The position numbers and the translations under genes were made by a program. From the NCBI RefSeq assembly GCF_011045215.1, contig NZ_CP049201.1: a DNA stretch of 64,000 nt; one strand, given 5' to 3'. Each line of letters starts with the position of its first letter. Positions within the stretch are counted from its first letter, which is position 1. The notes under the pieces were generated by a model that did not search any database, had not been told where the DNA came from, and saw only the letters and a program-made list of their open reading frames with translations. Positions 5,778-55,785 of the stretch are shown here, piece after piece. The DNA is from Escherichia coli (GTDB lineage: Bacteria; Pseudomonadota; Gammaproteobacteria; Enterobacterales; Enterobacteriaceae).

Positions 5778-7058
5778 ATGAAATTACTTATTCTGGGCAA
5801 CCACACTTGCGGCAATCGTGGCGATAGCGCCATCCTGCGCGGCTTACTTGATGCCATCAACATTCTCAATCCACACGCCGAAGTGGATGTGATGAGCCGC
5901 TATCCGGTCAGTTCTTCCTGGCTGCTCAACCGCCCGGTAATGGGCGATCCGCTGTTCCTGCAAATGAAACAACACAACAGCGCAGCGGGCGTTGTCGGGC
6001 GCGTTAAAAAAGTCCTCCGTCGCCGCTACCAGCATCAGGTACTGCTCTCGCGCGTCACCGACACTGGCAAGTTGCGTAATATCGCCATCGCCCAGGGATT
6101 CACTGACTTCGTGCGCCTGCTGTCAGGTTACGACGCCATTATTCAGGTCGGCGGATCGTTTTTTGTCGATCTCTACGGCGTGCCACAGTTTGAACATGCA
6201 CTTTGCACGTTTATGGCGAAAAAGCCGCTGTTTATGATTGGTCACAGCGTTGGCCCGTTCCAGGATGAGCAATTTAACCAACTGGCGAACTATGTCTTTG
6301 GTCACTGTGACGCGCTGATCCTGCGCGAATCGGTCAGCCTTGATCTGATGAAACGCAGCAATATCACCACCGCAAAAGTGGAACATGGCGTCGATACCGC
6401 GTGGCTGGTCGATCACCACACAGAAGACTTCACCGCCAGCTATGCCGTTCAACACTGGCTGGACGTTGCCGCACAACAGAAAACGGTGGCCATTACCCTG
6501 CGCGAACTGGCACCGTTCGACAAACGTCTCGGCACCACTCAACAAGCGTATGAAAAAGCCTTTGCCGGGGTGGTCAATCGCATTCTCGACGAAGGCTATC
6601 AGGTTATTGCGCTCTCCACCTGTACGGGCATCGACAGCTATAACAAAGACGACCGCATGGTGGCGCTCAACCTGCGTCAGCACATCAGCGATCCTGCCCG
6701 TTACCACGTAGTGATGGATGAACTCAACGATCTGGAAATGGGCAAAATTCTCGGAGCCTGTGAACTCACCGTCGGTACGCGCCTGCACTCCGCCATTATC
6801 TCAATGAACTTTGCCACTCCGGCGATTGCCATCAACTATGAACATAAATCCGCCGGGATCATGCAGCAGCTGGGACTACCGGAGATGGCAATTGATATCC
6901 GTCATTTACTGGACGGCAGCCTGCAAGCGATGGTTGCGGATACCTTAGGCCAACTTCCGGCGCTGAACGCACGACTTAACGAAGCTGTCAGTCGTGAGCG
7001 TCAGACGGGAATGCAGATGGTGCAATCTGTGCTTGAGCGCATCGGGGAGGTGAAATGA
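5778..7058 (+). CDS. wcaK: Colanic acid biosynthesis pyruvyl transferase WcaK, 426 aa
   Basis: ORF track; length and gene order. Confidence 0.88.
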   Translation: MKLLILGNHTCGNRGDSAILRGLLDAINILNPHAEVDVMSRYPVSSSWLLNRPVMGDPLFLQMKQHNSAAGVVGRVKKVLRRRYQHQVLLSRVTDTGKLRNIAIAQGFTDFVRLLSGYDAIIQVGGSFFVDLYGVPQFEHALCTFMAKKPLFMIGHSVGPFQDEQFNQLANYVFGHCDALILRESVSLDLMKRSNITTAKVEHGVDTAWLVDHHTEDFTASYAVQHWLDVAAQQKTVAITLRELAPFDKRLGTTQQAYEKAFAGVVNRILDEGYQVIALSTCTGIDSYNKDDRMVALNLRQHISDPARYHVVMDELNDLEMGKILGACELTVGTRLHSAIISMNFATPAIAINYEHKSAGIMQQLGLPEMAIDIRHLLDGSLQAMVADTLGQLPALNARLNEAVSRERQTGMQMVQSVLERIGEVK

Positions 7059-53246: not shown

Positions 53247-54140
53247 AAAGCGGTAGAAAAAGTTAAGTTCCCGGTTGATCGAATGGATGCGAATCGCTGA
53301 TCGAACTTCGATGCCAATCCGTGATCGAATAGAGCGGAATACGCATTCTGCCATTACCCACAATGCGCGGTTGAGCTTAATATCGGTGTCGATGTTGTGA
53401 ATGGCACGGGTGTGGATACGTTTTCCTTTTGCACTGCGGCCGGAAATCCCGCCTTTCAGCATATTCTCCTGGATGGTCTGATAAGTACTCCACAGGTCCT
53501 TACCGTAATCCTCCCGGCGTCGTGGCGTCAGAATGTCGGCGGTGGTGACGGGCCGATGTTCGTCACCATAACGGTAAGTCAGTGCCGCCTGTGCCAGCGC
53601 CTGGCGTGCCGGTGGCGGCAGGACCAGCGACTGCATGGCATCACGCTTCTCCTCTATCCGGTCAAACACGCCCACCACCTCGTAAGCCCCTTCAATGACT
53701 CTGTCCACCACATTTCCCCGATGCGGAACACGCACTTCCCCCAGAGACTGACCACAGACGCATCCGTTCTGACAGACGAACCTGAAGTAACCCGGCAGCA
53801 TCTGGTAGCTGGAGGTACCGTCATGGGAGTTGAGCAGAATGATTTCAGGGACATGTTCTCCGTTTATCTCTCCGGCCCGCCGCAGACGCAGCATGTGTTT
53901 TGTGTATCCCCGGCGGCCCGGGTCGCGCACACGGGTCTGGCAGGCGAAGAATGGCTGAAAGCCTTCCCGCTGCAGGCTTTCCAGTACGGTGATGGTGGGG
54001 ATGTACGTATAGTTCTGGCTTCGGGACGTGTGTTTCTCTTCCCCGAAAATCCCCGGCACATAGTGCATCAGTTCTTCGTGTGTCAGCGGACGGTCACGGC
54101 GTATCTGGTTCGCATAACCAAAACGACTGGCTAGTCGCAT
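53169..54140 (-). pseudogene. DUF932 (YafZ/YfjQ-family) gene with 3' end replaced by IS21-family terminal sequence
   Basis: ORF 53169..54140; first about 260 codons look like YafZ family (MRLASRFG...KLNRAL); after about 53356 the reading frame runs into the IS end and continues as unrelated sequence. Confidence 0.7.
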
Positions 54141-54297
54141 AATTTGCTCCTTATCGGTGGTTAAGATTTACTGGTGTAATAAATGAAAAAGCCACGTCTC
54201 CCGGAGAAGACGCGGCCTGACAGATGAAATGAATGACGTTTATTGTCTGAGAAGCCCTTAACTGGCGAGCTGAGTATTAAGCTGTGTTCCGGCATCA

Positions 54298-54489
54298 CTA
54301 GCGCAACTGACCTTCAGCATTACGGATAACCAGCCGGGAATATGTTCCCTGGTCATCTTCAGTAAACACATTGCGGTAAGCTGTTTTGACGACAACAGCC
54401 TGTTCGCGTGAGAAAGGGCCTTCGGGCAATAAACGTGATGTACAACCCGGCATATCTGTTGCTCCCTGAAAGTAAAAGGCCCCGGTCAT
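54298..54489 (-). CDS. Hypothetical small protein, 63 aa (doubtful)
   Basis: ORF track only; lies between the Ag43 remnant and the yafZ-like gene; no recognisable motif. Confidence 0.2.
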
Positions 54490-54523
54490 GATGACCGGGG
54501 CCTGAAGGAGAGTGACCTGATTA

Positions 54524-54595
54524 TCAGAAAGTCACATTCAGCGTGGCCTGACCGTTATAACCTTCAGCGCTGCTGCCGCTGACGCTGTGGGCATA
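54524..54595 (-). pseudogene. flu: 3'-terminal remnant of an autotransporter gene, consistent with antigen 43 (flu)
   Basis: Minus strand encodes [23 protein letters not shown]-stop, a typical autotransporter beta-barrel C-terminus ending in Phe; upstream reading frame is unrelated. Confidence 0.6.
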
Positions 54596-54754
54596 CCGGC
54601 AGGTACAAAACAGCATGGTCAGATAAAGTGGTTTTTCCCGGACATAAATGCTTCCCCTCTCTCATCCGCCAGAGAAGTATCAGTCCGTTGTGTGCAATTC
54701 CGTTCTGCATGATGAAGAGATTCAGCTGCCTTTTCGCAGACCATTAACCACTAT

Positions 54755-54800
54755 AAACGATCGATAGTAACGATCGATACCTGTTTTATCGATCGTTTTA
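54755..54800 (-). promoter_or_regulatory. Cluster of three GATC (Dam) sites in repeated AACGATCGATA motifs; resembles the agn43 phase-variation operator
   Basis: AACGATCGATA twice in direct orientation 13 bp apart plus inverted ATCGATCGTT, directly downstream of the YeeP-like GTPase gene where flu lies in CP4-44. Confidence 0.55.
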
Positions 54801-54912
54801 TTCTATTAACAGCAAGGCAGTCACGCAAGAGAAAGAGGTGGATATGAGGGGGTTGTGTCATGTTTTCAGTTGGTTAACGCAATGTAATCAGGCATTTCCC
54901 CTGGCAGACTGT

Positions 54913-55785
54913 TCAGAAGAAAATCCAGTTCCATACAGCGCGGGCAACAGAGACCACCGAGTCACGGACGGCACGCAGAACCGTGCGTGCAACAGAGGCA
55001 ATACAGACGCTCTCCGCCGTGTCAAATATCCGGTCCACCGCACCGGTAAACTGTTCACGGGCCTGAGACCGGACAGATTCCGTGCGCAGCTCGTCCTGCA
55101 GGCGGGTCATCAGGGGACTGGCGGCATGGTCGGGAAGCGCTGTCATGAGCGCACTGACCAGCATATCCAGTTCCCAGCCGGTGCAGGCCGATACGGCCAC
55201 AACCGGATGTACGGGCCGGAAGAGCCGGAATACCGCATCTGTTTTCTCACGAATGTTCTGTGCCTGTGCGGGAGAAGGCTGAATGCCGGCCATATCCCAT
55301 TCATGGCAGGGCTCCGTTTTGTCGGCCTGCGTCACCACAAACAGCACCTGCTGATGTCCCCGGTGCAGGATGTGTCGCCAGAAATACTCATCCACAGACA
55401 GGGCACGGTCATCGGCTTTAATCAGCCACAGTACCAGGTCAAGTTCAGGCAGAATGTCACGGTACAGGGCTTCATACTCTGCATCCCTGTCCCGGCTCTC
55501 GCCCACCCCGGGCAGGTCAGTGATAACCATGCTGTGACCGTGGCCACTCAGACGGAAGCGCTGCACTTCCCGGGTGCCGGCGTGAACATCACTGACCGGG
55601 GTGACCTCCCCCTGAAACAGTGCATTACAGAGTGAGGATTTACCGGCCCCGCTTTTACCCATAATGCCAATCACGGGTTCGTGACTGGTGAGTTTGCGCA
55701 GATGTTCCAGGATGTGACGGGAAAGTGAGTAAGGCAGGGAGGAGAGCGGTTTTTCAATTGCCTCAATGGCATCAGACGGATTCAT
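54913..55785 (-). CDS. yeeP: YeeP/YkfA/YfjP-family GTPase, 290 aa
   Basis: ORF 54913..55848; start at MNPSDAIEA; G1 motif GKSGAGKSS, G3 DLPG, G4 TQAD. Confidence 0.85.
   Translation of the reverse strand: MNPSDAIEAIEKPLSSLPYSLSRHILEHLRKLTSHEPVIGIMGKSGAGKSSLCNALFQGEVTPVSDVHAGTREVQRFRLSGHGHSMVITDLPGVGESRDRDAEYEALYRDILPELDLVLWLIKADDRALSVDEYFWRHILHRGHQQVLFVVTQADKTEPCHEWDMAGIQPSPAQAQNIREKTDAVFRLFRPVHPVVAVSACTGWELDMLVSALMTALPDHAASPLMTRLQDELRTESVRSQAREQFTGAVDRIFDTAESVCIASVARTVLRAVRDSVVSVARAVWNWIFF

Follow-up and report, generated by a model that had tools for sequence, protein, structure and literature searches.

The antigen 43 (Ag43) gene flu has been reduced to a pseudogene scar in the stretch of Escherichia coli DNA analyzed here (64,000 nucleotides in full length and called the window below). 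The scar is ordinary gene decay of a known kind in a degrading genomic island, and it retains the three-GATC regulatory switch of a gene of which no more than the last 23 codons remain. The account that we favor, and think has a good chance of being right, is that a single 2,829-bp deletion produced the scar, that the orphan promoter still fires and varies in phase to give a noncoding RNA of about 330 nt, and that the switch is an unselected leftover. The features on which the argument draws are listed in the order in which a polymerase on the minus strand would meet them.

54913..55785, minus strand: intact gene for a YeeP/YkfA-family GTPase, 290 amino acids (open reading frame list and NCBIfam GTPase-domain matches)
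54800..54828, minus strand: agn43 promoter, with a -35-like TTGCGT (54828-54823), a 17-nt spacer and a -10 TAGAAT (54805-54800)
54759..54794, minus strand: Dam/OxyR operator with three GATC sites (54794-91, 54775-72 and 54762-59), spaced 19 and 13 nt apart
54593..54794, minus strand: retained agn43 leader, 202 nt, the 5' part of IsrC/Rfam IS102 (RF00124 scoring)
54593..54600, no strand: deletion junction (BLAST breakpoints and junction printouts)
54524..54595, minus strand: flu (Ag43) 3' remnant, 23 codons and TGA (translation identity)
54468..54503, minus strand: flu intrinsic terminator, a 12-bp stem (9 GC pairs) and a 3-nt loop followed by UUUUACUUU (terminator scan)
54298..54453, minus strand: truncated DUF905 pseudogene (PF06006 model positions 2-44 of 70, E = 1.8e-13)
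54189..54218, minus strand: second terminator-like hairpin (-22.6 kcal/mol, z = -5.9), just 5' of the DUF932 gene
53346..54140, minus strand: codons 1-265 of the 272 of a DUF932 (yafZ/yfjQ-like) gene (BLASTP)
50708..53345, plus strand: IS21-family insertion, with istA at 50807-52474 and istB ending at 53246 (open reading frames)

The locus occupies the CP4-44 position. It is flanked by sbcB-dacD-sbmC-yeeA and is colinear with loci that have the same flanks and carry an intact Ag43 gene of 2,847 bp. A gene for a YeeP/YkfA-family GTPase precedes flu in CP4-44-type islands, and the orthologue of the window's GTPase gene, at the same relative position in the intact loci, is annotated as "GTPase family protein." The GTPase gene and the flanks both agree with an earlier, sequence-only reading of the window, which had recognized the place downstream of a YeeP-like GTPase where flu lies in CP4-44. 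That reading had also proposed a flu deletion scar with the three-GATC module retained, and every element of it was found in place on the minus strand.

The main reference for the deletion was L002, the orthologous locus with intact Ag43 of strain LCP30S3_I3. Relative to it, the BLAST breakpoints leave 2,829 bp missing, in keeping with the loss of roughly 3 kb of passenger and barrel that had been estimated from the window. The upstream flank is 99.8% identical to L002 over 1,308 nt, the downstream flank is 98.7 to 98.8% identical, and one alignment ends where the other begins, at an imperfect repeat, GCCGGT(T)AT. At the junction stands GCCGGTAT, which is imperfectly common to the leader terminator hairpin, in its 5' arm (GCCGGTATCCAC), and to flu codons 924 to 926 (GCCGGTTATGCCCAC). 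The left break is located within that arm, 52 nt 5' of the flu start codon, and the surroundings of the junction no longer fold (z = -0.5). The deletion took out the leader attenuator/terminator, together with the ribosome-binding site and the sequences for signal peptide, passenger, and nearly the whole barrel. Thus, a functional Ag43 gene, with signal peptide, passenger and complete barrel in one open reading frame, is absent from the locus; the start codon is gone, and 23 codons are left. We propose that short-homology illegitimate recombination or replication slippage joined GCCGGTAT, within the leader hairpin's 5' arm, to GCCGGTTAT, 23 codons before the flu stop. The sigma-70 promoter, the three-GATC OxyR operator, and the 202-nt leader remain intact and unchanged. 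The exact sequence of the window, its own allele, was found in none of 5,426 complete E. coli genomes, and the exact 22-nt junction had no match in metagenome contigs and none in species-representative genomes.

What is left of the coding sequence is the last beta-strand of the translocator barrel. The remnant reads TAT GCC CAC ... AAT GTG ACT TTC TGA, and its residues are identical, 23 of 23, to the C termini of both K-12 Flu and an intact 948-amino-acid Ag43 allele. It starts 161 nt 3' of the last GATC motif, and its DNA is homologous to the intact loci at the position of flu and colinear with them through the flu terminator. An autotransporter C terminus of about 24 codons, ending NVTF-stop and some 160 bp beyond the GATC cluster, had been read from the letters of the window, and alignment with agn43 had been put forward as a check; the alignment matches the GATC region to the agn43 regulatory region and the remnant to the 3' end of flu, with 23 codons and a stop as the exact count.

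The length of the deletion is a multiple of three, and thus a leader ATG (54616) is in frame with the flu tail to give a 30-amino-acid open reading frame (54524-54616; MLFCTCRYAHSV...NVTF). We do not consider the frame a gene, as it is a chance join of leader ATG and tail and has no Shine-Dalgarno sequence. We note that in L002 an ATG in the leader, 75 nt 5' of the annotated Ag43 start (6285-6360), is in frame with that start and is followed through the hairpin by no stop codon (MLFCTCRYPLLWVPAFLFTLCKEKL-MKRHL...). The same leader frame is open across that region in K-12 too.

By sequence and geometry, the regulatory module of the window belongs to the agn43 Dam/OxyR switch family. The -35-like element is located 85 nt beyond the end of the GTPase gene (54913) on the minus strand, the -10 TAGAAT is shared with K-12, and the segment that holds the promoter does not differ from its counterpart 5' of intact Ag43 alleles. 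A generic promoter scan did not call the agn43 promoter because its -35 element is weak. The -10 stands 5 nt upstream of the first GATC, the three sites have the 19/13-nt spacing of K-12 agn43, and no other GATC occurs between 53500 and 56000. On the plus strand, the sites are contained in two copies of AACGATCGATA (54756-66 and 54769-79) and an inverted TATCGATCGTT (54787-97), which confirms the three GATC sites in repeated motifs that had been noticed at about 54756..54797. The arrangement GATC-N15-GATC-N9-GATC is found at one place in the 64-kb window and was absent from all of 100 shuffles. The annotated 5' end of K-12 isrC is the G of GATC-I, from which we infer a transcription start at the corresponding G in the window (54794); the three GATC sites, with agn43 spacing, would thus overlap the transcript start 3' of the -10.

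The K-12 switch and that of the window are alike in locus, upstream GTPase gene, -10, and GATC spacing, and also in having the first GATC at the annotated transcript start and the same kind of leader 3' of the operator. They differ in that no gene stands behind the switch of the window, in the -35 (TTGTCC in K-12, TTGCGT in the window), and in the operator, which matches at 26 of 36 positions and departs from K-12 in the spacer that separates GATC-I from GATC-II. The window has a non-K-12 form of the module that is the more common one: the 161-bp promoter-operator segment is present in 3,450 of the 5,426 complete genomes, none of which matches the copy of the window at 100% (best, 99.4%). Compared with the intact orthologue, the sole difference in the switch is at window position 54761 (minus-strand GTTACTATC), between GATC-II and GATC-III. 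The position is polymorphic, with A in the window, G in L002 and L012, and T in K-12, and the A is also present in other alleles, which in a small sample were confined to other scar-bearing loci. Scoring against the OxyR tetramer consensus did not discriminate; the best match was 13/20 in the window versus 14/20 in K-12, and about 2.5% of random 131-nt windows reach 13. Identity with the module 5' of intact alleles is the better argument for a putative OxyR site.

Behind the promoter, 202 of the approximately 237 nt of the IS102-type RNA are kept, and the 3' terminator module is lost. In the intact leader, that module is a hairpin, GCCGGTATCCAC-TTTT-GTGGGTACCGGC-UUUUUU, which folds at -24.1 kcal/mol and is the 3' end of K-12 IsrC. 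The RF00124 model gives 252.6 bits for K-12 IsrC, 69.2 for the intact orthologous leader, and 20.2 for the window RNA, which lacks the 3' terminator stem and falls below the IS102 gathering threshold of 46 bits. The 202 nt are colinear with the IS102-positive leader of the intact orthologue but are without the defining 3' hairpin and U tract, and the flu terminator would supply the 3' end. An Rfam scan of the region returned "MicL" as the sole match better than E = 0.01, with IS102 subthreshold; the MicL match coincides with the flu terminator hairpin and was rejected as spurious. The leader attenuator is reported to limit flu transcription, in a passage of PMC5389530 that cites Wallecha 2014. 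As the attenuator is gone from the window, more polymerases may reach the flu terminator than did before the deletion.

The flu terminator begins 21 nt past the flu stop, folds at -25.3 kcal/mol (z = -6.9), and has a U tract. The DUF905 frame as listed reaches 54489, inside the terminator hairpin. A full-length DUF905 domain (70 positions) is absent, the match covering positions 2-44 only, and the orthologues are annotated "DUF905, frameshifted." In the island family of the window, the DUF905 start codon is located only 24 nt past the hairpin and 15 nt past the U tract, a distance at which the gene would hardly have a promoter of its own, and hence some read-through is probably the normal route of DUF905 expression in that family. 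Farther downstream, the second hairpin precedes a DUF932 gene that is 96% identical to an intact 272-amino-acid orthologue and diverges from it after residue 265. Colinearity breaks at 53346, where the last 7 codons are replaced by the IS21-family insertion, and the frame enters the insertion as far as 53169. The insertion corresponds to a 2,638-bp colinearity gap relative to the orthologous locus L013, which is without it at that site. We note that L013 carries ISEc12 at another place and that the window is without that ISEc12.

In K-12, the sister islands CP4-57 and CP4-6, which lack flu, have a hairpin comparable to the second one between their GTPase and DUF932 genes. In each the gap between the two genes is 91 nt, with the terminator-like hairpin inside it (L017 14675-14765 for CP4-57 and L018 6007-6097 for CP4-6). 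Thus, switch, leader, flu, terminator, and DUF905 behave together as a cassette inserted between GTPase and DUF932. In K-12, flu is followed by yeeR. Both yeeR and irmA are absent from the window locus, and the hairpin after flu in the yeeR-type arrangement of K-12 is without a U tract, whereas that of the window island family has one. The difference (window 54453-54503 versus L001 5175-5225, K-12) may decide whether flu forms an operon with the genes downstream.

The sequence-only reading had suggested that a Dam/OxyR-style switch may now sit in front of the small open reading frame and the yafZ-like gene. Physically it does. Functionally the suggestion is weak, given the two hairpins, the DUF905 pseudogene, and the IS-disrupted DUF932 gene. 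Moreover, the order flu-terminator-DUF905-DUF932 is identical in the intact loci, and thus the deletion puts no additional gene behind the promoter; its only effects are a shorter distance from the switch to the downstream genes and the loss of the leader attenuator.

Because its sequence is pristine, the orphan switch probably still fires and phase-varies. The promoter is predicted to initiate at about 54794, and Dam and OxyR would probably still compete at the three GATC sites such that phase variation persists. The product would be a noncoding RNA of about 330 nt, made up of the 5' part of IsrC and 72 nt of flu tail and ending at the flu intrinsic terminator, and the predicted minimum-free-energy fold of such a transcript keeps the flu terminator hairpin. 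Read-through past the terminator would be at most small, and it would meet a dead DUF905, a second hairpin, and a disrupted DUF932. We thus read the switch as the leftover of a recent deletion, probably unselected, and not as a re-used regulator. A pristine switch, taken by itself, suits recent deletion and selection equally well.

The one unusual point of the window scar is recurrence. An identical junction is present in 3 of the 5,426 complete E. coli genomes (30COLEC, HZ13, and B1), and a single further genome, LR-46, has a variant of the junction that keeps 16 more nt. Common descent of the window scar and the 30COLEC/HZ13/B1 scar is ruled out by the variants that surround them. The window scar has L002-type variants on both sides, up to the junction, whereas the tail of the 30COLEC scar and the DNA downstream of it belong to the L012-type intact family (99.8%), and the leader-side variants differ from those of the window. 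Because the flanking variants belong to different allele families, the same junction arose independently at least twice, each time in its own allele background. We note that slippage between GGTAT repeats could also have turned an LR-46-type junction into one of the window type.

Eleven independent deletions were mapped, namely, nine distinct junctions, one of them arising twice, and the LR-46 variant. Four of the 11 left ends are inside the 32-nt leader hairpin (L002 6308 twice, 6323, and 6327). Within the hairpin (L002 6301-6328), the left ends of the window and 30COLEC are in the 5' arm and those of LR-46 and CUVET16-559 are in the 3' arm, and SW071614 has an IS-associated break 20 nt beyond it (L002 6348). 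The right ends cluster in the 3' region of flu, at L002 9136 (three times), 9014 (twice), and 8795 (twice), each with different allele backgrounds, and uniform simulations give P of ~5e-5 for five coincident pairs among 11 right ends. Most junctions share TA, often in GGNTA. Microhomology alone is insufficient as the cause of recurrence, because the junction repeat is not among the 12 top-scoring direct repeats between leader and flu; the best of these, TGTCCGGGAAAA, lies about 35 nt 5' of the left break and about 21 nt 5' of the right break. The clustering may reflect template switching stimulated by the hairpin, or sites prone to breakage. Recurrence and endpoint clustering together suggest a mutational hot spot, which would add to the known patchy distribution of Ag43. 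Alternatively, the independent recurrence of an identical junction could mean that, beyond a hot spot, the outcome was selected.

Whether selection acts on the switch can be judged from other scars. Ag43 pseudogenes are common, and surveys of Ag43 routinely leave them aside (PMC10058404). Among the 5,426 complete genomes, Ag43 decay is frequent, with at least 11 distinct deletion alleles and one IS disruption. Other deletion pseudogenes are found, for example, in AR_0069, ET670, SCU-118, PD4, PK-F-10132, CUVET16-559, and GPEC874, and, with the junction of the window, in 30COLEC, HZ13, and B1. Like the window scar, they are microhomology deletions, here of 1.7 to 3.0 kb, that take away the passenger along with most of the barrel. 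Their left ends range from a point 5' of the promoter to one about 500 nt inside the gene, and their right ends fall within its final 1,150 nt, with 9 of 11 in the last 410 nt. Unlike them, the window allele has lost the coding start in full and retains every part of the switch. The 30COLEC/HZ13/B1 scar has a -10 of TAGAAC for TAGAAT and five further private operator changes, LR-46 has GATT in place of GATC-III, PK-F-10132 has lost the whole promoter, and the PD4-group scars keep only 50 nt of the leader. Since a mutated -10, a lost GATC, and a lost promoter are found in these scars, the switch is not conserved once the gene is gone, and the other scars argue against selection to keep it.

The claim that sister scars show decay of the switch after deletion is nonetheless kept only in part. 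The -10 TAGAAC is present in two scars that are not nested, the 30COLEC type (L004 ~5863-5970) and the PD4 type (L007 ~1600-1670), and because it is common to both, the change is probably older than either deletion. The two scars have other operator variants in common as well. The shared changes suggest an allele family that had a dead promoter and afterwards lost the gene more than once.

Why a switch should survive its gene invites the thought that it has been re-used, with Dam and OxyR imposing phase-variable read-through on the DUF905 remnant, DUF932, and the antirestriction, RadC, and CbeA/CbtA genes. There is a precedent, as agn43, yeeR, and irmA are cotranscribed and OxyR repressed in uropathogenic E. 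coli, where an oxyR mutant increased irmA 12.9-fold and agn43 121-fold (PMC4807369; Moriel et al. 2016), such that the agn43 promoter can drive genes 3' of flu under OxyR. Moreover, the switch sequence of the window is intact, the leader terminator is deleted, and the flu terminator lies too close to the DUF905 start for a promoter to fit in between. The genes downstream are different in the window, however, being DUF905, which is a truncated pseudogene, and DUF932, which is IS disrupted and parted from the genes beyond by the 2.6 kb of the insertion. Two strong hairpin terminators intervene, and that of flu has a U tract, unlike the K-12 yeeR-type hairpin. The intact loci have the same gene order, and thus nothing new has come under the switch; in sister scars the switch has decayed or been deleted; and in enteroaggregative strain 042 the downstream gene irmA is independent of the flu promoter (PMC9431211). 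We consider re-use unlikely.

Less likely still is that the loss of Ag43 is not random decay but one outcome of recurrent, structure-directed excision, in which the leader terminator hairpin is joined to a few favored GGNTA sites near the 3' end of flu. The product, an orphan Dam/OxyR switch with an IsrC-derived leader that ends at the flu terminator, would then have been retained either for a phase-variable small RNA or to drive island genes in a phase-variable manner, and to this we give little credence. The narrower idea that an IsrC-like RNA was preserved for a function in trans, with its terminator swapped for that of flu to give a phase-variable RNA of about 330 nt, draws on the 202 of about 237 nt of IS102-type RNA behind an intact promoter, on a terminator 90 nt further on, and on exactly the same junction in two independent lineages. 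The other lineage with that junction, however, has the T-to-C change in its -10 that should cripple the promoter, PD4 has lost most of the leader, and PK-F-10132 has lost the promoter. Moreover, the window RNA scores 20.2 bits against the gathering score of 46, and in the literature searched IsrC is described as an attenuated flu leader (PMC5389530) and no function in trans was found, making preservation of the RNA very improbable. Finally, Ag43 genes are often multicopy and repeat rich and can mislead assemblers, and the exact sequence of the window occurs in no complete E. coli genome searched; the scar might accordingly be an assembly collapse, with flu intact in the real genome. Yet the join is a clean one at microhomology, it is identical in three independently assembled complete genomes and present as a 16-nt variant in a fourth, and colinearity with the orthologous locus extends to both flanks. 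An artifact is thus scarcely credible, and we retain the reading of a recent deletion that left its switch behind.

Loss of the adhesin encoded at the CP4-44 locus means that this copy of Ag43 gives no autoaggregation or biofilm. The fitting annotation is a flu pseudogene with an orphan regulatory region. The hot-spot pattern is of modest relevance to the mechanics of genome decay and reveals no new system. Ultimately, the scar is a naturally occurring, promoter-only version of a textbook epigenetic switch, and it may be used to ask whether switching and GATC protection outlast both the gene and the attenuator.
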